Origin: a virus
Lineage: Duplodnaviria; Heunggongvirae; Uroviricota; Caudoviricetes
Length of the DNA stretch: 10,513 nt
IMG/VR virus record: IMGVR_UViG_2703718834_000006
Strand: one strand, 5' to 3'
Of this stretch, positions 1,898 to 10,513 are shown piece after piece. Position numbers and translations under genes: made by a program. The notes beneath the pieces are model-generated. The model searched no databases. It saw only the letters and a list, made by a program, of their open reading frames with translations, and was not told the DNA's origin. Position 1 is the first letter of the stretch; each line of letters starts with the position of its first letter.

Positions 1898-2392
1898 TTA
1901 TTTTATAGTTTTTATGAATTCTTTATTAAATCCCTTCGCTTCTCCGGGGTATCTTCCGAAGACAATTTTTATAAAAACAGAAAAAATAAAGATAGCAACG
2001 CTTAACAACAATTGCAGTATCATTGGAACCCAAAGAACTACAGGCTCTATATTCATGAAACCAAATATTCTTCCGGCGATCATGGCGAAGTACCACACTG
2101 TTATCAGCAAACTTAGTGGCATATGAATTACTGATATTACCAATCCAAGAGCATCAGTAATTCTGTTTTCAAATTTTTCAGGGGAAAACTTTTCTTTAAG
2201 GTAATTCAGTGCGCAGGCCTCATTCTCTGGATTTTCAGCATTTTTCCCTATAGCAATAGAAATCTCAGATATCCTTGATTCAATTCTTTTACGTTTAATA
2301 AAACTAGAAAAAAAGAACCACGCAATCTGCAACCCTATCCCCAGAAATAGAGTTGCGGCAACTAGCACAGCGTAACTCATAGAATCAGACAC
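1898..2392 (-). CDS. Small polytopic inner-membrane protein, SieA-like (superinfection exclusion) by position
   Basis: 164 aa with three to four hydrophobic helices ([24 protein letters not shown]; [26 protein letters not shown]; [28 protein letters not shown]). GTG start at 2392 is preceded by a perfect AGGAGG Shine-Dalgarno 5 nt upstream. Clearly AT-rich relative to its neighbours. P22 carries sieA between gene 16 and mnt in the same orientation. Confidence 0.45.
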
Positions 2393-2452
2393 ACCAACCT
2401 CCTTAGTTTTACGCAGGATACCAGATGATAATGTGTCGCTTCCTAAAGGATA

Positions 2453-3094
2453 TCAAAGCAACGGGATTTCAAGGTAAACTGCGGTTGCCAAAATACTAAC
2501 ATCTTCATTTCTAACAAGAATATTAGGATACATTGGGTTTAGGGATACTAGGTTTGTCTCTATTTCACCAATGTAAACCTGTTTGAAGCTCAATATTTGC
2601 TCTTTATCCAAAGATGCTATTACATAATCTTTGCTTTTAGCTTTTACTAGAGGGCTGAACGTGACAACCGATCCTCTGGGAAAGCTAATACCTGAACTTG
2701 TAGTCATAGCTTCACCTTCAATAGTCAATGCAAATGCAGAGTCACCAACATTGTATATTGCCGGATGAAATCTAGACGATGAATGTTCACCTGTGTTTAG
2801 GTAATGCATAACTTCATCTAGTTTGAGGATTGGTATTTGCTTTACCAGAACGTCAGGCATGACGTTTTTTGTTCCCGGCCCCTGGCCTTCACCCAGAGCT
2901 AACCACTCAGCCGTAGTGCCTAATGCGTTGGCTAATGCCTGCAATACACGAAGCCGTGGTTTAGCCTCACCACCCTCGTATGCAGCTATTTGACGTTGAA
3001 CAACACCAGCTAATTTTGACAACTGCGCCTGCGTCATACCCCTCGACTGTCTTGCCAGAGATACTCTTGATGGGAATTGATCGTCAAAATTCAT
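2453..3094 (-). CDS. Lambda-CI/LexA-like repressor: N-terminal XRE-type HTH plus C-terminal S24-peptidase-like domain with Ser-to-Ala at the nucleophile position (predicted non-cleavable)
   Basis: 213 aa. N-terminus (residues ~10-65) has a Cro/C1-type HTH pattern (MTQAQLSKLAGVVQRQIAAYEGGEAKPRLRVLQALANALGTTAEWL). C-terminus aligns with lambda CI from memory: DSAFALTIEGEAM vs DSAFWLEVEGNSM, ISFPRGSVV vs PSFPDGMLI, SFKQVY..LVSLNPMYP vs [22 protein letters not shown]. Lys171 corresponds to CI K192, but the Ser149 position is Ala129. No A-G or C-G dipeptide in the linker. GGTGA ribosome-binding site upstream of the ATG at 3094. Confidence 0.8.
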   Translation of the reverse strand: MNFDDQFPSRVSLARQSRGMTQAQLSKLAGVVQRQIAAYEGGEAKPRLRVLQALANALGTTAEWLALGEGQGPGTKNVMPDVLVKQIPILKLDEVMHYLNTGEHSSSRFHPAIYNVGDSAFALTIEGEAMTTSSGISFPRGSVVTFSPLVKAKSKDYVIASLDKEQILSFKQVYIGEIETNLVSLNPMYPNILVRNEDVSILATAVYLEIPLL

Positions 3095-3193
3095 TAGTTC
3101 ACCATAAAAAATTCATTGACTCATACTGAGTGTGAGTGAATAATCAAACCTCAAAAAGTGAGATTATGAGTTTTTCAAAAACAGGAGTGCATA
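3095..3193. promoter_or_regulatory. Divergent promoter/operator region between the CI-like gene and arc-ant; candidate Pant-like promoter TTGACT(3116-3121)-N17-AATAAT(3139-3144) with overlapping palindrome and tandem repeats
   Basis: Rightward -35/-10 pair with 17-bp spacing. Palindrome ACTCA-TAC-TGAGT at 3119-3131 overlaps the -35 and spacer, followed directly by tandem TGAGTG TGAGTG (3127-3138), with further GTGAG/TGAG copies at 3158-3170. Operator-like arrangement inside a core promoter, as with the Arc/Mnt operators at P22 Pant. Identified by eye, not scored. Confidence 0.4.
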
Positions 3194-3367
3194 ATGACTG
3201 AAAAGATATCTTCCATCAAGCCGCGTCAGGTTCGTTTTACAGAAAAGGTTGATTCACATATCCGCGAATCAGCAAAAAGATGCCATAGGTCAATTCAGGC
3301 AGAGATAGCTTATCGAATGGAGTTATTAATGAAACTTGAGGCAAAGGGCGATGTTGTCATCCAATAA
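3194..3367 (+). CDS. arc: Arc-like ribbon-helix-helix repressor (57 aa); absent from the supplied ORF track
   Basis: ATG at 3194 preceded by AGGAG (3183-3187) at 6-nt spacing; stop TAA at 3365-3367. Translation: MTEKISSIKPRQVRFTEKVDSHIRESAKRCHRSIQAEIAYRMELLMKLEAKGDVVIQ. Layout matches an RHH fold (N-terminal beta strand then two helices) and resembles P22 Arc (..RSVNSEIYQRVMESFKKEGR..) in the RS..EI and K-G motifs. Lies immediately upstream of ant, as in P22. Confidence 0.6.
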   Translation: MTEKISSIKPRQVRFTEKVDSHIRESAKRCHRSIQAEIAYRMELLMKLEAKGDVVIQ

Positions 3368-3369
3368 AA

Positions 3370-3440
3370 ATAGTGAAGCCCGGCAGTGCGCGAACACAAA
3401 CCGGGCCTCTATGTCAGTAACCGTATGCAAGGAAACTAAC
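3370..3440 (-). ncRNA. Candidate sar-like antisense RNA covering the arc-ant spacer and the ant ribosome-binding site (inferred)
   Basis: On the minus strand an extended -10 element TGcTACAAT (complement of 3447-3455) would start transcription near 3440. It would run through the complement of the ant Shine-Dalgarno/start (3429-3443) and end at the GC-rich hairpin 3378-3406, which on this strand is followed by TTCACTATTTTTA. Predicted length about 70 nt, the size and location of the P22 sar RNA. No expression evidence. Confidence 0.3.
3378..3406. terminator. GC-rich stem-loop in the arc-ant spacer; likely intrinsic terminator for leftward (antisense) transcription and possible attenuator of arc read-through
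   Basis: GCCCGG (3378-3383) pairs with CCGGGC (3401-3406); an inner GTG/CAC pairing is possible within the loop. A T-rich tract follows only on the minus strand (complement of 3365-3377). Confidence 0.35.
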
Positions 3441-4067
3441 ATGAATATTGTAGCAAAATCAGATTACAACTTCCACGGAGTTGAGTTGGTGCCCACCCGT
3501 GATATGCATGGTGTTTGGTTTACATCATCTAATATTGCATCTGCACTTAAATATGCAAATAGCCGTGCAGTAACAATGATTTATAACAAGTATAGCGATG
3601 AGTTTAGCGCCGGGATGACTCAGGTACTCGAAGTGAGTACCTCAGGAAATTATCGCAAAAAAGTGCGAGTTTTCTCACTACGCGGTGCCCACCTAATCGC
3701 GATGTTTGCTCGCACTCCGGTAGCCAAAGAGTTCCGCCGCTGGGTGCTGGATATTTTGGATCGGCAGGCAGAATGCTCACCGATTGCAAAACAGTTCACT
3801 GACGAAGAGCTGGTTAATCTCTGCTACTTACAATTGTGGATGGAGAAGAGTCAACAAATGTGCAAACACATCTACCCAGGAATGAAGCAAATTGGTTCTG
3901 AGCTTTCAGGAAGGATTTACGATATTGCATATGAGACTCGCTACATGTCAGAAGAAACCAAGAAATCACTTCTTCGTGAAATGAAGAATCTTGATACCAA
4001 CAATTTTGTCGTAAAGAACGCTCAGCCAATGCTGGCAAAACTGCGCGGCGAGGAATGGATTCATTGA
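3441..4067 (+). CDS. ant: Antirepressor Ant (Bro-N / AntA-type N-terminal domain)
   Basis: ATG at 3441 with AAGGAA ribosome-binding site at 3429-3434. The track's 3336 start is a TTG that overlaps arc and is rejected. N-terminus YNFHGVELVPTRDMHGVWFTSSNIASALKYANSRAVTMIYNKY...VRVFSLRGAHLIAMFARTPVAKEFRRWVLDILD matches the Bro-N/AntA antirepressor pattern (FxF..., WF.a.dva.aL, rG.lia.f..tp.a.efrrWv). Sits downstream of arc. Confidence 0.8.
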   Translation: MNIVAKSDYNFHGVELVPTRDMHGVWFTSSNIASALKYANSRAVTMIYNKYSDEFSAGMTQVLEVSTSGNYRKKVRVFSLRGAHLIAMFARTPVAKEFRRWVLDILDRQAECSPIAKQFTDEELVNLCYLQLWMEKSQQMCKHIYPGMKQIGSELSGRIYDIAYETRYMSEETKKSLLREMKNLDTNNFVVKNAQPMLAKLRGEEWIH

Positions 4068-4154
4068 TTGGTGCACAGGACGGCGCAAAAGAAAACCGCC
4101 AGTGTGCTGCTGGCGGCCTATGTCACACCCTTACTACCACATAAGGAATGCCTA

Positions 4155-4883
4155 ATGACTTTTAAGAATGTAGCAAACATCGGATCCGTTGTCACGGATA
4201 AAACCATTGACAGCCAGCGCCTGCTTGAGATGGTAAATCAGGCTCGTAGACAGTGCGGTGAGCCGGAGGTTCGTAATAACAAATTCATCGAGAAAATTGA
4301 AGATGAATTGGATGGAGAGCACTACACAAAAAGTGTAGTGCAAAAAGCGAACAAAACTTCGATGGTTATCATTGAGATGTCAATCAAGCAAGCATTGCGA
4401 GTTGCCGCTCGCGAGTCAAAAGCCGTTCGCCGCTCACTGGTAGACCAACTTGAAAGCATGCAAGAAGCGCACATTAAAAGCGGTAAATCAGCGAGTGGAC
4501 TTGTTGAGTATCGTCAAGCGCGAACATTGAAAATGACGGTTGAAGCTGTTACCAATCTGTTCGATCTGATGCCAAATCTTGCGCCTGAGGCAAAGCAGAC
4601 AGCGGCAGCAAGTATAATCAACCCGCTCGTTGGTTTTAATGCAATACCTCTTCCGGCAATAGAAGAGCATTACTACTCAGCAGGGGAGGTTGCAGAGCAG
4701 CTTGGAGTAACGGCCAACAAGATTGGTCGCATTGCTAACGCAAACAACCTCAAAACTGAGCAGTACGGGAAGTTCTTCCTGGATAAATCTGCGCATTCCA
4801 GCAAACAGGTGGAAGCATTCCGCTACAATGCGGAAGGCGTTAAAGCACTACAACACCTGATTCATGGGAGTAATGTTGCATAA
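4155..4883 (+). CDS. Hypothetical phage regulatory protein with C-terminal KilAC (ANT)-like HTH segment; possible second antirepressor-type protein
   Basis: ATG at 4155 with AAGGAA at 4143-4148. The track's 4068 start is a TTG directly after the ant stop and is rejected. The C-terminal stretch YYSAGEVAEQLGVTANKIGRIANANNLKTEQYGKFF resembles the KilAC-domain motif of phage antirepressors (..tEiAkelGvsa..lnk.L...g......g). The N-terminal 150 aa are not recognised. Confidence 0.5.
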   Translation: MTFKNVANIGSVVTDKTIDSQRLLEMVNQARRQCGEPEVRNNKFIEKIEDELDGEHYTKSVVQKANKTSMVIIEMSIKQALRVAARESKAVRRSLVDQLESMQEAHIKSGKSASGLVEYRQARTLKMTVEAVTNLFDLMPNLAPEAKQTAAASIINPLVGFNAIPLPAIEEHYYSAGEVAEQLGVTANKIGRIANANNLKTEQYGKFFLDKSAHSSKQVEAFRYNAEGVKALQHLIHGSNVA

Positions 4884-5104
4884 TGGCAAAGAAAAAATAT
4901 GGCATTATGCCGCCAAGAATCAAAGGAAGAGCTAGGGTAAAAGGTGATGCTGGAAGGTATCACATTCTTGGAGTTCTGTGGCATGAGAGAGCTTTAATTT
5001 TAAGTAGACCTCATGGGTACATTGAAAAGGTATCTATAGATAGAGTAGAGATTCTTCCCCTTACACCTGAAGAAGAAGAAACGTACGGACTTTTTGATAA
5101 CTAA
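4883..5104 (+). CDS. Hypothetical small basic protein (73 aa), translationally coupled to the upstream gene
   Basis: Its ATG overlaps the upstream TAA in ATAATGG (4881-4885). Basic N-terminus (MAKKKYGIMPPRIKGRARVKGDAGR) and acidic C-terminus (TPEEEETYGLFDN). Followed by a strong intrinsic terminator. No family recognised. Confidence 0.45.
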   Translation: MAKKKYGIMPPRIKGRARVKGDAGRYHILGVLWHERALILSRPHGYIEKVSIDRVEILPLTPEEEETYGLFDN

Positions 5105-5110
5105 CCAACT

Positions 5111-5137
5111 AAACCCGCTTAATCGCGGGTTTTTTCT
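5111..5137 (+). terminator. Rho-independent terminator ending the arc-ant-orf-orf operon; hairpin overlaps the mnt stop codon on the opposite strand
   Basis: AAACCCGC-TTAATC-GCGGGTTTTTTCTTTT: stem CCCGC/GCGGG flanked by A/T pairs, followed by a run of six T (5130-5135). On the minus strand only TTT follows, so termination is probably mainly rightward. Confidence 0.75.
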
Positions 5138-5376
5138 TTTCTAAGGATATCAGCCGCAACTTCTTTTACTCGTTCCGAGATTAATGAGGCCAGCCTCTCT
5201 TCTTCATCACGATACCCGCTTACAGGTGGTGGTTTGGAGAGTGATTCTTCCATCGTAGCCACAATTTCGGAATTGATAGACCTGTTATTCATTTTTGCAC
5301 GCTGTTTAATCTTGGCGTGCAACTCGTGCGTAAGCCTCAAGTGGAACTGCGCCTCATCGTATTTGCTGTACATCAT
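5119..5376 (-). CDS. mnt: Mnt-like ribbon-helix-helix repressor (85 aa)
   Basis: MMYSKYDEAQFHLRLTHELHAKIKQRAKMNNRSINSEIVATMEESLSKPPPVSGYRDEEERLASLISERVKEVAADILRKEKTRD aligns along its length with P22 Mnt as recalled (..PHFNFRMPMEVREKLKFRAEANGRSMNSELLQIVQDALSKPSPVTGYRNDAERLA..). Start is ATGATG at 5376/5373 with a GAGG ribosome-binding site. The 217-aa track ORF (5119-5772) is an in-frame upstream extension and is rejected. Confidence 0.8.
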   Translation of the reverse strand: MMYSKYDEAQFHLRLTHELHAKIKQRAKMNNRSINSEIVATMEESLSKPPPVSGYRDEEERLASLISERVKEVAADILRKEKTRD

Positions 5377-5462
5377 CAATGCCTCACCAAATGGGTGGAA
5401 TGGCATCGTAAAACCTACTGTACAAATCAACAATCGTACCGTTTCGGTATGCAACAAATACC

Positions 5463-5478
5463 AACCGTGGCCACGCTG
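5463..5478. promoter_or_regulatory. Palindromic candidate operator (perfect 10-bp core CGTGGCCACG at 5466-5475) between mnt and the tailspike gene
   Basis: AACCGTGG|CCACGCTG. GC-rich dyad symmetry built from GTGG/CCAC elements, the same elements that make up the P22 Mnt operator half-sites, though in the opposite relative order. Lies about 90 bp upstream of the mnt start and about 35 bp upstream of the tailspike start. Confidence 0.3.
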
Positions 5479-5508
5479 CGGCGATTCATTGTATCTGGAG
5501 CAAATTAA

Positions 5509-7569
5509 ATGACAGACATTACAGCCAATGTTGTAGTAAGCATGCCTTCGCAACTCTTCACTATGGCTCGTTCTTTTAAAGCCGTAGCTAATGGAAAGAT
5601 TTATATCGGAAAAATTGACACTGATCCGGTAAATACTGAAAACCAGATTCAGGTTTATGTGGAGAACGAAGACGGCTCTCACGTTCCTGTTTCGCAACCA
5701 ATCATCATTAACGCTGCTGGTTACCCGGTATATAACGGACAGATTGCCAAATTCGTTACCGTGCAAGGCCATTCTATGGCTGTTTATGATGCATATGGTG
5801 CGCAGCAGTTCTATTTTCCGAATGTGCTGAAGTATGACCCTGATCAGTTCAAAGTTTTACTGACAGGGAACGAAGGTTCGACATATATTGGAGATGGCGC
5901 AGGAACTGTAAGCGATTCGCTAAGAAGCTTGGAACATGAGTTTGAACTAATCCAAAGTTTGGATGAAAGGCCAAATCCACCACCTACAGAAGGATATTCA
6001 GGGTATAAGCGCTGGAACCCGATTCATGAAGATGGTTTTCAACTTGGCAGATATACGTTTAAAACTCCAACGCATGTTGATTTTCAGTTTGTATGCGACC
6101 CAATAAATAGTGACATTGGACCAATATTTTCTATGGGCATGGATGGTATAGATCAGCGATCAGCATTTTTTTCTCAAGACAGCTATGAAATTAGAAATGT
6201 AATGATGGATGGGGGGACGGCAAAGCTTGTTGAATTTGAGCCATGGACATCTCATATGGCAACAGTAGAGAAATGTCGTGTTATCAATCCTGAAGATAGC
6301 AACGAGTGGGTAGTTAATTTTAAAGCACAAAATTGGTGGCCACATATTATAAATAATACATACATGGAATATAACGATCACGCCAATAATTTTGTCAAGG
6401 CAATTGATGATGGTGGTAACACAACAGATAGATATTCAGGAAATAGTAGGCTTTTTATTGCATTTAATAGATGTGCATGGCAGGGTGGTAGCGCTGTCGG
6501 TACTGGCATTATGTCATATACATCTGCTGTCGCAACGAGAATAAAAGACAACTCCGCACAGAATGCAAAAACATGCGTTATTTTTGGATATCCATCAACG
6601 TTTTCTTCAGTTGATGGACTTTATTGCGAGATGGCATTTGGACACCAACAAGTCGTACAAATTGGCGATTCAGAAACGACATCGCAGCAGATACTGACTG
6701 ACATTACTATAAATGATGTTTATGCTAATTTACATGGCATAAACTCAAACAGAATAATTGTTGCTGGGAATGATGATGTGATAATGAACTATTTGGAGGT
6801 TGACAAGATATTTATTTCAAATATTCCAGGGTCAGGTTTTATTCAGCCAATAATATCAATTAACGATTTGCCATATCAAAAGATTGTTGCAGGAAGGATT
6901 ACTGCTGAAAATATGCCGCTTCTTCCGTTAACATCCAACCATGTTTCTGTTATTGATAAATACAACGCAGATATACCAGCTCTGAATGGTGACATTATTT
7001 ATATAGAGAACAGTACAGTAAGTATTCCTCCCAACTCATCAACTGCTGTTGCTCCTGGATGGTTTGTAAGATCAACATCTAATACAGTGTTTACTAGGAG
7101 TGGTGCAGGGACTCCAAACAATGCATTGAGAATGAGTCGTTATATTGCATCTGTTCTTAGTAATGCTGGCGCAACGACATCGATTACATTCGAACATCCA
7201 CGAGCCGACTTGGTGAATGGTGAGGCAGTGACAGTCCAGGCTTTGTTTAACGCTGATGTTGAACTAACATTTTTAGTGCACATATATGTAGCAAATGACA
7301 ATGGAGCAAGAACTACACTACTTTCAAAAACATTAGTAGGTGGAGGCTCGTGGAAGGAAATGACCTTTACGGTTGGAGTTTCAGGGGTTGAAAATACTAA
7401 ATCATGTATAGTTGTAGAGATCGGAGCCACAACACCATACTCTACTAATATTTTTGTCACAGGGCATCGCATGAACAGAGGTCGCTTTGGCCTGTGCGGA
7501 GCGGCTAATACTTTTAGCTACGCTGAAACTGAAAGGATGAAGTCGGATTATGATTATATAACCCCATAG
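5509..7569 (+). CDS. Tailspike protein: P22-type N-terminal head-binding domain fused to a divergent receptor-binding domain
   Basis: 686 aa; GGAG ribosome-binding site 9 nt upstream. Residues 1-116 ([42 protein letters not shown]...[15 protein letters not shown]...[10 protein letters not shown]) are near-identical to the P22 gp9 head-binding domain as recalled. After about nt 5857 the sequence has no resemblance to the P22 endorhamnosidase domain and becomes visibly AT-rich. Confidence 0.9.
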
Positions 7570-8035
7570 AAACTAACTGAAGAATAAGAACAAAAATGAT
7601 GTGGGAATAGTTAGATTAGATCTTCTTGATTTTTTCGAAAAATCTAATGATGTAATCGCTATTCCTGCACGTAGTTTATGTTATAACTATCTTATTTCTA
7701 TACTAATAGAAACATGTTAAAAACACGACGTAAATATTTTCATCCATCTGGAGACATGTCACTTTAAATGGATGTTTCAGTGATTTTTAAAAGTATCATG
7801 TCAGTGCTGAATGAGCTAGATACCCATGTATTTAATAGCTTTTTATTTGATCGGCAATTTTTATATGATAATCATGGTAATTTTATATATGTCATGATCG
7901 AAGAGTATTTTACTATACTAACAACTAGTGATAATTAGAACAATGCATGGCGATATGCTTTATAATTTGATGAGACATTATCAAATATGGCACTCATTTA
8001 TTATAAATATTTTTGTAAGAACAAGTATAAATTAA

Positions 8036-8054
8036 AGGGGGCAATACCCCCCCA
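8036..8054 (-). terminator. Probable intrinsic terminator for the acyltransferase gene (minus strand)
   Basis: GGGGG-CAATA-CCCCCCC hairpin 12 nt beyond the TAG stop (8065-8067). On the minus strand it is followed by TTTAATTTAT. Confidence 0.4.
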
Positions 8055-8064
8055 GTAAACAACA

Positions 8065-9075
8065 CTAACCTTCAGCTACTATAATTTCTTTTCTCTTTCT
8101 TCTTAAGAACGGCTTTTCGATATAATAATAAGAAACAGTCGCCAGTAATGTAGTTGCAAAAAGACTAAGAGCTATGGATGGGATGAATTTATTAGTTATA
8201 TTATTTATAATGATCTGTTGTACTGGGAATGCGTATATATACAAACCATAAGATATATCAATCCTTCCGTTTATAACCCTGTCTTTAATGGTTAGGCCAA
8301 GAACAATAATTATAACAGACAAACATAGTGGCGCTACAATTTGTATTTCCGGCTTACCAGTCACGGCAATAAGCAACAATAAGGCAGTAATGAACACTTG
8401 CTTTTTATACTTCAACCATGACTCAGTAGTCATTGACAATAAAGCACCAAAAAAGAATGGCATGCCAAATAATGATAATGATTTAAAAGGCACACTAAAA
8501 TATGTGTAATTTTCAGGATAGAAGTTGAAAATTATTGTGGAAAGTATGCATGTAACTAATAATAAAGCAGGCCCGACCCATGTGAACGATATAGAGAGCG
8601 CAAGGCCAATTATTAGATAGCATGAAAATTCTATAGGCAGCGTCCAAAGGCTTCCATTAATAACATGAGGGTAAAAGTAATCAGAAAACACTCCATCCAC
8701 ATAACTCTGCAGGAAAAAAGTATTTCTTATGATATTTAAGTATGGCTGGGAAGAAAATAAATATGCGTAACTATTATTGGAGTTAAATTCTACTGCGACA
8801 AATAAATACATAACAACAGAGCATACAAATAATGCAGGAAATATACGCAGACACCTTTTCCTCATGAACTCGATAAACGAACCAGATGAATTAAAACTTT
8901 TTGGCATTAAGAAACCAGATAAACAAAAGAAAATTGCAACTGCGACCGCACCATAACTATCCCATTGAAGAAAAACAGGCTCATGATCACCAGATAACCT
9001 GAAGTGATGAGAAAATAAAACCATGTAGGCGGCGACATGTCTAATTATATCAAATGAATTATTTCGCTCGCTCAT
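8065..9075 (-). CDS. Integral-membrane acyltransferase family 3 protein (Oac-like; putative O-antigen acetylase for lysogenic conversion)
   Basis: 336 aa with about 10 predicted transmembrane helices. Carries acyltransferase-3 hallmark motifs: SFDIIRHVAAYMVLFSHH (R/H motif), YGAVAVAIFFCLSGFLM, RKRCLRIFPALF and SYGLYIYAFPVQ. Strong GAGGAG ribosome-binding site 5 nt upstream of the ATG at 9075. Very AT-rich. Position between tailspike and int matches oac in phage Sf6. Confidence 0.8.
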   Translation of the reverse strand: MSERNNSFDIIRHVAAYMVLFSHHFRLSGDHEPVFLQWDSYGAVAVAIFFCLSGFLMPKSFNSSGSFIEFMRKRCLRIFPALFVCSVVMYLFVAVEFNSNNSYAYLFSSQPYLNIIRNTFFLQSYVDGVFSDYFYPHVINGSLWTLPIEFSCYLIIGLALSISFTWVGPALLLVTCILSTIIFNFYPENYTYFSVPFKSLSLFGMPFFFGALLSMTTESWLKYKKQVFITALLLLIAVTGKPEIQIVAPLCLSVIIIVLGLTIKDRVINGRIDISYGLYIYAFPVQQIIINNITNKFIPSIALSLFATTLLATVSYYYIEKPFLRRKRKEIIVAEG

Positions 9076-9355
9076 TAAAGCTCCTCATAATGTATAACAC
9101 ATGTTAAGTTATTTAAGTGAAATTGTAATACCGAGGATGCTGTGCATGATTGTCAACACCTAGAATAGACACATAGGTAGCATGTGCAAGGCGCAATTAA
9201 TGACTTCATGACGCAACTCAATAATCAAAAGCATGAAGTCTATCATCCAAGTCTTAATCGATCTATGACTTGCTGTGGTTGATGAGACAAAACTGAGACA
9301 AACAAAGCTTTGCACTGGATTACAAGGCTTAGTGTCATTCGATAGCTAAGGTGGA
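9076..9355. other. Putative attP-containing spacer between the acyltransferase gene and the int 3' end; also carries the acyltransferase promoter
   Basis: 280-bp non-coding spacer directly beyond the int stop, the attP position in lambda, P22 and Sf6. Contains a 9-bp inverted repeat GACTTCATG (9202-9210) / CATGAAGTC (9232-9240) and a third ATGACTT copy (9265-9271). A consensus TTGACA on the minus strand (complement of 9151-9156) is a possible -35 for the acyltransferase gene. No tRNA 3'-end-like sequence was recognisable. Confidence 0.3.
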
Positions 9356-10513
9356 TCACTCAACCTTTTCATCAATCCAGTCCGCCCACCATTGCATCAT
9401 TTCTCTGCGTTTATCGAGATACTGAGCATGGTTGTAAATCCCACGCACAGATCCGCCGTTGGCATGTGCCAGTTGCACTTCAATAGCGTCAGCAGGCCAT
9501 TCGTGCTCGTTCATAATTGTGCTGAATTCATGCCTGAATCCGTGACCGCTTTCCAGACCCTCATAGCCGATTTGTTTGATCACAAGCAATACCGCGTTCT
9601 CGCAGATTGGCTTCTTCTTATCGTTGCGCCCGGCAAAAACAAACTCTGATACTGGTTTAGTGATGGAGCTTAGCGTAGTGAGAAGTTCAACCACCTGGTC
9701 TGACATAGGAACCACATGAATCCTGCGTCCCTTCATCACACTGGCGTCGATAGTGATAATCCTGTTTTCAAAATCGACGTTCTTCCATAGCATGGAACGA
9801 AGCTCTTTCGTTCTTAGGGCAGTGTAGCGTAAAACTTTGGTCGCAATAAGCGATACGATACTTCCTGAAAATGTTGCCAGTGCTTTATTGAATGCTGGGA
9901 TCTGGTCGGCAGGTAAAAACGGGAAGTTTTTCTTGCGGTATCCCTTCATGGCGTCAGCAAGGTCAGGTGCCGGGTTATATTTAGCCCTACCGGTAACAAT
10001 AGCGTAACGGAAAACCTCGCCGCATCTTCTGCGTGCTTTATTGGCTCGCTCCATTGCACCGCGATCTTCAAACCTGCGGATTACTTCCAGCAGTTGCATA
10101 GGCTCAATATCCTGAATTTCAAGGCCGCCGATGATAGGTAAAATGTCGTCATCAAACATTTTTGCAAGTTCAGTTGCATAGCCTACTGACCAGACTTGCT
10201 TCTTGTGCTCGTACCATTCCTTGTAAATCGCACTAAAGGAATTGTTGTTAGACGAAGCCTTTTTCGCTTTTACCGGATCGATGCCAACCGAGATGTCTTT
10301 CCTCGCAGTCCATGCTTTATCCCTTGCCTCCTGCAAAGTCATAAGCGGATATTTTCCTACGGTCAGGATTTTCTCCTTACCGTCAATCTTGTAGCGAAGC
10401 TGCCATACCTTTTTCCCTGACACAGGGACATAAAGGTACAGGCCATTACCATCGAGTAGGCGGTATGGTTTTTCTTTCGGCTTTGCTGCTTCAATCTGCT
10501 TAACGGTGAGCAT
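9356..10513 (-). CDS. int: Tyrosine site-specific integrase (P4/P22-type, with N-terminal arm-binding domain); complete, start codon at the last bases of the window
   Basis: 385 aa. N-terminus MLTVKQIEAAKPKEKPYRLLDGNGLYLYVPVSGKKVWQLRYKIDGKEKILTVGKYPLMTLQEARDKA is the canonical start of P4-like integrases. C-terminus holds the catalytic region (HGFRHEFST...VQLAHANGGSVRGIYNHAQY) with the H-x-x-R and Tyr nucleophile context. Confidence 0.9.
   Translation of the reverse strand: MLTVKQIEAAKPKEKPYRLLDGNGLYLYVPVSGKKVWQLRYKIDGKEKILTVGKYPLMTLQEARDKAWTARKDISVGIDPVKAKKASSNNNSFSAIYKEWYEHKKQVWSVGYATELAKMFDDDILPIIGGLEIQDIEPMQLLEVIRRFEDRGAMERANKARRRCGEVFRYAIVTGRAKYNPAPDLADAMKGYRKKNFPFLPADQIPAFNKALATFSGSIVSLIATKVLRYTALRTKELRSMLWKNVDFENRIITIDASVMKGRRIHVVPMSDQVVELLTTLSSITKPVSEFVFAGRNDKKKPICENAVLLVIKQIGYEGLESGHGFRHEFSTIMNEHEWPADAIEVQLAHANGGSVRGIYNHAQYLDKRREMMQWWADWIDEKVE

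Follow-up and report, generated by a model that had tools for sequence, protein, structure and literature searches.

We analysed a stretch of 10,513 nucleotides (hereafter, the window; IMG/VR virus record IMGVR_UViG_2703718834_000006), which is the end of contig LONU01000011.1 of Escherichia coli strain G184 (GCA_001575945.1), focusing on the gene at positions 5509–7569. This gene is an intact open reading frame (ORF) on the forward strand, running from an ATG at 5509 to a stop codon at 7569 and encoding 686 amino acids (aa). It is preceded by a leader with a GGAG ribosome-binding site (5464–5508, forward strand); by DNA alignment and blastn block boundaries, the leader DNA is common to phages HK620 and CUS-3 from 5464, and to Sf6 from 5494. 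In the source contig, the gene follows a Phage_P22_gp16 ejection gene, a SieA gene, a helix-turn-helix (HTH)/S24 repressor-like gene, two anti-repressor genes and an Arc/Mnt gene, and it is followed by a convergent Acyl_transf_3 gene, an integrase gene and tRNA-Arg(CCT), namely argW, which lies ~160 nt past the int gene (10884–10958 in L001). The order of spike, reverse-strand polysaccharide-modification gene and integrase is also seen in Sf6, HK620 and CUS-3. The gene is thus located after gp16 and the immI region and before a modification gene and the integrase gene at the prophage end, and it encodes the tailspike of a P22-like (Lederbergvirus-type) prophage whose integration site is argW.

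The first 114 residues of the tailspike (5509–5850, forward strand) constitute the head-binding, or virion-attachment, domain. Residues 1–113 matched the whole PF09008 Head_binding model of Pfam above its gathering score (E 7e-67), and the solved head-binding domains of Sf6 gp14 (7sg7, E 1e-64) and P22 gp9 (2vky/8tvr, E 3.5e-51) were matched in the PDB. Identity in this domain was 92% to Sf6 and CUS-3, 88% to HK620 (129 aligned residues) and 74% to P22 gp9 (85/115). A preliminary description of the window, made by eye, had called the domain near-identical to that of P22 gp9; the domain type was correct, but near-identity was an overstatement because the P22 value is only 74%, the value of 92% being reached with Sf6 and CUS-3. 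The same description had the domain end at a conserved linker and placed the junction at about 5857, and both statements agree with our results, the latter to within 2 codons. Specifically, the linker motif, [10 protein letters not shown], which ends in YDPDQF, occupies residues 105–114 (nt 5821–5850), and nucleotide homology, as examined by DNA alignment and blastn, stops exactly at the end of this motif, at 5849 for CUS-3, 5850 for Sf6 and 5851 for HK620, where identity to the three phages drops from 88–94% to none. Furthermore, megablast matched the first ~340–358 nt of the gene in 1,123 of 5,426 complete E. coli genomes and the remainder in none. HK620, Sf6 and CUS-3 have the same head-binding domain and the same joining codon, followed by unrelated modules. 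The exchange point is the conserved codon block ending in YDPDQF that is common to all P22-like spikes.

From residue 115 onward, the protein carries a different, horizontally acquired receptor module, which belongs to the family of phage Det7 gp206 (subtype TSP4-9 in Sorensen’s nomenclature). When 50,697 phage records were searched by tblastn, Det7 gene 206 and four near-identical Kuttervirus records were matched with 34% identity at 95% coverage (E 2e-85), together with a Vibrio lentus phage spike at 28% identity. In PHROGs, phrog_36390, that is, the Det7 gp206 family, was the only match (E 4.3e-90; residues 46–559 against profile positions 530–1039). A direct BLASTP alignment to gp206 gave 34% identity over 544 aa (E 3e-93) and covered gp206 residues 509–1039, which are all that follow the myovirus scaffold, indicating that the homology spans the receptor module in full and that the module is a member of the Det7 gp206/TSP4-9 family. 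The preliminary description had called the C-terminal module unrecognised, but relatives of it exist. On the other hand, its statement that similarity to the P22 endorhamnosidase ends at the junction was borne out by both sequence and profile searches. Residues 117–686 had no sequence match in the PDB, either as a single sequence or as a 21-sequence profile, and P22 chains in the PDB were matched only within residues 1–116 in phmmer and profile searches, so that the module does not belong with the endorhamnosidase receptor-binding domain (RBD). None of the depolymerase signatures GH28, Pectate_lyase_3 and Beta_helix of Pfam was found in the module, which places it outside the sequence-defined glycosidases and lyases.

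A protein database search retrieved 34 homologs of the module with 42–98% identity and at least three adaptor types. The first type is the P22 head-binding domain, found in E. coli, E. fergusonii, Enterobacter ludwigii and metagenomes, and the second is PF18668 Tail_spike_N, found in proteins of ~700–827 aa from siphovirus-like prophages. The third is a class of 773–784 aa with no Pfam-recognised adaptor, encoded by prophages without a tape-measure gene. When the Kuttervirus TSP4 scaffold is included, at least four adaptors precede the same receptor module, which retains 42–72% identity over ~570 aa behind different adaptors; in all homologs, alignment to the window protein starts no more than a few residues from its residue 117. 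The module is rare: when 1.84 billion cluster representatives were searched exhaustively with HMMER, 26 matched, of which 22 had E ≤ 1e-10, and among 185,579 genomes representing one species each, only those of a Scandinavium sp. and a Buttiauxella sp. carried the module. The 90% cluster that contains the window protein comprises 73 sequences from E. coli and E. fergusonii, and full-length identical or 98% identical proteins are present in the databases (WP_061356291.1; E. fergusonii ECD227). These identical entries are the same uncharacterised chimera and not a known tailspike of uniform composition, and they do not refute the module swap in the sense meant by the preliminary description. The occurrence of one module behind at least four adaptors, and of one head-binding domain in front of unrelated modules, supports the module swap that had been proposed from the DNA by eye. 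Casjens et al. (2015; PMC4424284) reported that C-termini among the three non-P22-like spikes of Det7 resemble an E. fergusonii ECD227 prophage, naming no particular Det7 spike for this resemblance; the connection between a Det7 spike and the E. fergusonii prophage was hence already noted in 2015, and the ECD227 tailspike falls in the 90% cluster of the window protein.

To describe the module structurally, we used an AlphaFold2 monomer model of residues 117–686 built from the 21-sequence alignment (mean predicted local distance difference test (pLDDT) score, 79.6; predicted template-modelling (pTM) score, 0.69). In this model, a linker and a predicted neck helix of low pLDDT (aa 115–165, helix at aa 134–149; 5851–6003, forward strand) lead into a predicted right-handed parallel beta-helix (aa 166–461; 6004–6891, forward strand), the putative polysaccharide-binding and catalytic domain, in which the beta-strand solenoid has pLDDT values mostly of 80–96. 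By this helix in the monomer model, the module conforms to the pectin-lyase-fold depolymerases. The helix is followed by a C-terminal beta-sandwich (aa 503–657; 7015–7479, forward strand), which was assigned from the AlphaFold2 strands and from Foldseek matches to carbohydrate-binding module (CBM) families 4, 11 and 22 (CBM4/11/22) with target-relative template-modelling scores (TM-scores) of 0.5–0.65. The protein closes with a conserved tail (aa 658–686 and the stop codon; 7480–7569, forward strand) ending in [17 protein letters not shown], with near-invariant K, D, Y and P columns. In the Foldseek search with the module, the top match was CBA120 TSP4 (5w6h, E 3e-10), and ranks 2–13 were occupied by the Klebsiella capsule depolymerases K2-2 TSP, Kp7 gp52, KP32gp38 and Depo32.

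Across twelve family members, including those of Det7 and the Vibrio phage, 42 columns are invariant. Most of these columns, D224, D300, D301, E374, D387, D432 and D453 among them, fall in the beta-helix. Nine columns are acidic (the seven just named, D483 and E617) and are concentrated in the helix, indicating purifying selection on more than a scaffold. The right-handed beta-helix that the preliminary description had proposed to look for is thus predicted by the model. By fold and conservation, D300/D301, E374 and D387 are candidate catalytic residues.

The gene convergent with the tailspike gene (8065–9075, reverse strand) encodes an Oac-like integral-membrane acyltransferase of 336 aa, a putative receptor-modifying (seroconversion) partner of the spike. 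Its product matched PF01757 Acyl_transf_3 (E 2.6e-20) and phrog_3333 (O-acetyltransferase), and among phage records it was closest to Sf6 Oac, with 37% identity over the full length of 336 aa (E 7e-66). With an Acyl_transf_3 membrane domain and full-length similarity to Sf6 Oac, the protein is of the Sf6 Oac type. We then surveyed nine distinct contexts of the module whose downstream genes were retrievable. A convergent Acyl_transf_3 gene was directly downstream of the module in 8 of the 9, and in 5 of these 8, counting the P22-like E. coli prophage of the window itself, it belonged to the window’s own lineage, whose members are 49–81% identical to the window’s acyltransferase. The other four of this lineage are found in a siphovirus-type prophage (L014; RBD 68% and acyltransferase 81% identical to those of the window), in Scandinavium sp. 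(L016; 49% and 55%), in Buttiauxella sp. (L017; 49% and 55%) and in a P22-like prophage (L008; 65% and 49%). Acyltransferases of distant lineages follow the module in P22-like prophages of E. ludwigii (L006; RBD 72%, partial match only) and of L007 (RBD 63%, no significant match), and in an E. coli prophage with a 784-aa spike (L010; RBD 63%, partial match only). In the ninth context (L012/L013, E. cloacae; RBD 50%), a gtrA/gtrB/gtrC cassette follows, with no acyltransferase match. The DNA of the window and of L014 is collinear over the module (70%) and the acyltransferase gene (75%), and the adaptors are different. The synteny supports the receptor/modification pair suggested by the preliminary description. 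GtrABC proteins glucosylate O-antigen units in P22 and in the Shigella phages SfX and SfV, and the gtrABC context in E. cloacae therefore favours the O-antigen as the target. Note that the gtrC-like glucosyltransferase gene encodes 407 aa in L013 (9150–10373), whereas the corresponding region of L012 (9757–10371) has a 204-aa ORF and a 650-nt gap; the L012 gene may be an inactivated seroconversion gene.

To the right of the acyltransferase gene, homology resumes at 9221 for HK620, 9322 for CUS-3, 9362 for Sf6 and ~9220 for other E. coli prophages. Given that homology is lost at 5849–5851 and returns from ~9220, the variable unit is a 3.4-kb cassette, 5851–9220, which consists of the receptor module, a 495-bp spacer, the acyltransferase gene and the region upstream of the latter. 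This upstream region (9076–9220) is cassette-specific and forms the right end of the cassette, E. coli genomes and HK620 matching from 9220/9221 only. The cassette was found in none of the 5,426 complete E. coli genomes, in which the spike gene and the region 7570–9355 matched by megablast at conserved flanks only. The G+C content (GC) of the cassette was 0.361, compared with 0.445 in the rest of the window (p = 4e-16). Scans of the cassette with Rfam and for repeats, promoters and terminators gave only one terminator-like hairpin, just past the acyltransferase stop codon (8033–8054, reverse strand). The spacer (7570–8064) lies between the convergent stop codons, has 28.7% GC and is specific to this prophage lineage. 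It had no Rfam match and no repeats, and it has no counterpart in the L014, L006, L008 and L010 loci; the gap between the tailspike and acyltransferase genes was 11–45 nt in L006, L007, L008, L010 and L014 and ~35 nt in L016/L017. Its sole ORF, of 56 aa (7768–7938, forward strand), is uncalled in the source annotation. The spacer may be what is left of another cassette gene, or it may be a small moron.

The locus was compared with characterised systems. It resembles the gene 14–oac–int region of Sf6 in the head-binding domain (92%), the YDPDQF junction, the convergent Acyl_transf_3 gene (37%), the integrase (99%) and the argW site. It differs from that region in that the receptor module shows no sequence relationship to the endorhamnosidase of Sf6, the acyltransferase is of another lineage, and the AT-rich spacer is 495 bp long as opposed to 33 bp in Sf6. 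CUS-3 likewise shares the head-binding domain (92%), the exchange point and the spike–acetyltransferase–integrase layout at argW, but its module is an endosialidase for the K1 capsule, and its acetyltransferase NeuO presumably belongs to a different protein family. The 34% identity to Det7 gp206 over 544 aa spans the beta-helix, the beta-sandwich and the C-terminal tail, whereas the Det7 module is carried on a 1,048-aa myovirus TSP4 scaffold with baseplate-anchoring domains and no P22 head-binding domain. Since this identity is low, the specificities of the two proteins probably differ. The HK620 tailspike, an endo-N-acetylglucosaminidase (2vji), was only 10% identical in structural alignment and is without a CBM-like C-terminal beta-sandwich of the window type. 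CBA120 TSP4 (orf213, 5w6h), K2-2 TSP (8iq9) and KP32gp38 (6tku) share the order of a beta-helix followed by C-terminal beta-sandwich domains, but identities to CBA120 TSP4 and the Klebsiella depolymerases were 9–11% and TM-scores were 0.24–0.43.

Taken as a whole, the gene encodes a P22-type adaptor joined to a Det7 gp206-family module; we regard it as probable that this module cleaves O-antigen and that the Oac-like acyltransferase masks this receptor. The head-binding domain plugs the spike into the tail hub, and the trimeric beta-helix would bind and cleave a host surface polysaccharide, most likely the O-antigen, bringing the virion to the outer membrane. After lysogeny, the acyltransferase would acetylate the same polysaccharide, and spikes of this type would then fail to bind it; by analogy with Sf6 Oac, such masking would be a seroconversion giving superinfection exclusion. 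That the acyltransferase would acetylate the O-antigen recognised by its cognate spike, and so block adsorption, is suggested by synteny only.

Several results weigh against this explanation. First, nothing beyond PF09008 was found in the module in Pfam (E up to 1) or NCBIfam (E up to 0.1), and since Pfam, NCBIfam, PDB and profile searches gave no match, the catalytic assignment comes from fold and conservation only. Second, when the family profile was compared by hhalign with the HK620 RBD, the probability was 0.15 and no homology was detected in the beta-helix, and in the comparison with the CBA120 TSP4 RBD only the PF18668-type adaptor of other family members aligned. The fold matches thus reflect analogy or very remote relationship and do not allow catalytic residues to be transferred; the fold class is established and the enzyme class is not. 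Third, a literature search gave no receptor or host assigned to Det7 gp206/TSP4-9, nor is any protein of this family known to have an assigned activity, receptor or serotype; a search of literature and records also gave no serotype for the host strain G184. Fourth, because 3 of the 8 paired acyltransferases are of distant lineages, the pairing is a synteny of functional class and not always strict co-inheritance; the two loci from the species-representative genomes are too small a number for statistics on it, and modification genes beside tailspike genes are common in temperate phages generally. Finally, GC changed from 0.43 to 0.39 across the junction, which was not significant over all positions (chi-square p = 0.22). 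The DNA had been described as visibly AT-rich after the junction, and this applies to the cassette as a whole and to GC at third codon positions (0.42 to 0.29, p = 0.009), but not to all positions at the junction itself; the most AT-rich DNA lies further downstream, in the spacer (GC 0.287) and the acyltransferase gene (0.342).

Among other explanations, the target may be a capsule or another exopolysaccharide (K antigen, enterobacterial common antigen or colanic acid), with the acyltransferase modifying that polymer. The Klebsiella capsule depolymerases at Foldseek ranks 2–13 point in this direction, as does CUS-3, in which the same gene layout accompanies a capsule-specific spike (K1 endosialidase together with the capsule acetylase NeuO); in addition, Acyl_transf_3 includes acetylases of exopolysaccharides, and an ExoZ-annotated phage homolog was 34.5% identical. 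However, likeness in the beta-helix depolymerase fold does not discriminate between substrates, the closest characterised acyltransferase is the O-antigen acetylase Sf6 Oac, and gtrABC follows the module in the E. cloacae prophages, and we therefore consider a capsule target unlikely. It is also rather unlikely that the module is a polysaccharide lyase, acting by beta-elimination at uronic acids, instead of a glycoside hydrolase. The top structural neighbours HK620 TSP, GH110 and GH28 are hydrolases, the invariant Asp/Glu pairs are more typical of hydrolases, and the invariant columns include no Lys and just three Arg, which are scattered (R314, R541 and R654), although each of these points is weak either way. 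It is quite improbable that the module is an adhesin that only binds, or that the spike has decayed and lost its function in a defective prophage, given that the ORF is intact and in a cluster of 73 sequences, and that the invariant columns, with their acidic residues concentrated in the beta-helix, are held in common by E. coli, Salmonella-phage and Vibrio-phage proteins. The reading of the gene as a single, uniformly evolving tailspike lineage without a local junction, for which the full-length identical or 98% identical database proteins and the non-significant GC difference over all codon positions could be cited, is refuted by the abrupt identity breaks at 5849–5851 against three phages, by the 1,123 of 5,426 E. 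coli genomes matching the gene start and none the rest, and by the occurrence of the module behind unrelated adaptors.

Regarding the rest of the window, the tyrosine integrase gene (9356–10513, reverse strand) is the conserved flank of the cassette; its product has Pfam integrase domains. Compared with the integrase of Sf6, identity reaches 99% for the protein and 97% for the DNA, and this integration module is far better conserved than all other parts of the window. The gp16-type ejection gene at the other end (1–1875) is itself mosaic. Its nt 1–426 are 96% identical to HK620 gene 16 and nt 1–125 are 83% identical to Sf6, the remainder having no close match among the compared HK620, Sf6 and CUS-3 loci; a Pfam scan of the ejection protein gave no family, and the precomputed annotation names PF26808. 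The immI-like region (1898–5373) is elaborate. It contains genes for SieA (1898–2392, reverse strand), an HTH_3 and Peptidase_S24 repressor-like protein (2453–3094, reverse strand), a Bro-N/P22_AR_C anti-repressor (3411–4067), a second anti-repressor (phrog_1726; 4155–4883) and Arc/Mnt (84 aa; 5119–5373, reverse strand), as well as a 57-aa ORF and a gene for a 73-aa protein (phrog_4977). The HK620 and CUS-3 records, as annotated, have no S24-type repressor gene at this position beside sieA in their immI layout. A 217-aa ORF (5119–5772, reverse strand) is an over-extended reading of the Arc/Mnt gene, and its upstream part, antisense over the tailspike start, is almost certainly non-coding. The anti-repressor region is also shared with the siphovirus-type locus L014 (window 3375–4828 against L014 10794–12271, 73% nucleotide identity), in which the gene order differs (spike, oac, arc, ant), suggesting that a larger block has been exchanged between P22-like and siphovirus-like prophages.

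Mosaicism in P22-like tailspikes, with seroconversion genes next to them, is textbook knowledge, and the architecture and logic of this locus are those of Sf6, HK620 and CUS-3; the particular module is rare and uncharacterised. In whole or in part, the cassette is found in phages of different morphotypes, and several enterobacterial genera have podovirus-like or siphovirus-like prophages in which the module is accompanied by the acyltransferase. As a tentative extension, it is possible that the window holds the founding E. coli example of an unclassified depolymerase family, carried in a portable recognise-then-mask cassette with one Oac lineage that passes between podovirus-like and siphovirus-like phages and is directed at one acetylatable O-antigen motif. 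If this were true, the O-antigen motif would be shared by Escherichia, Enterobacter, Scandinavium, Buttiauxella and perhaps Salmonella, and the virulent myovirus Det7 would hold a distant relative of the module alone.

Tailspike receptor modules set the serotypes that a phage can infect and serve as parts for host-range engineering and as serotyping reagents. The concept seen here stays within the established mosaicism of P22-like tailspikes, a known way for phages to change hosts, to which the locus adds one rare module family that, across morphotypes, tends to be accompanied by an acetyltransferase from a single lineage. The pairing of module and acetyltransferase provides a practical handle on the receptor, and probably also on the host of the orphan TSP4-9 spike of Det7.

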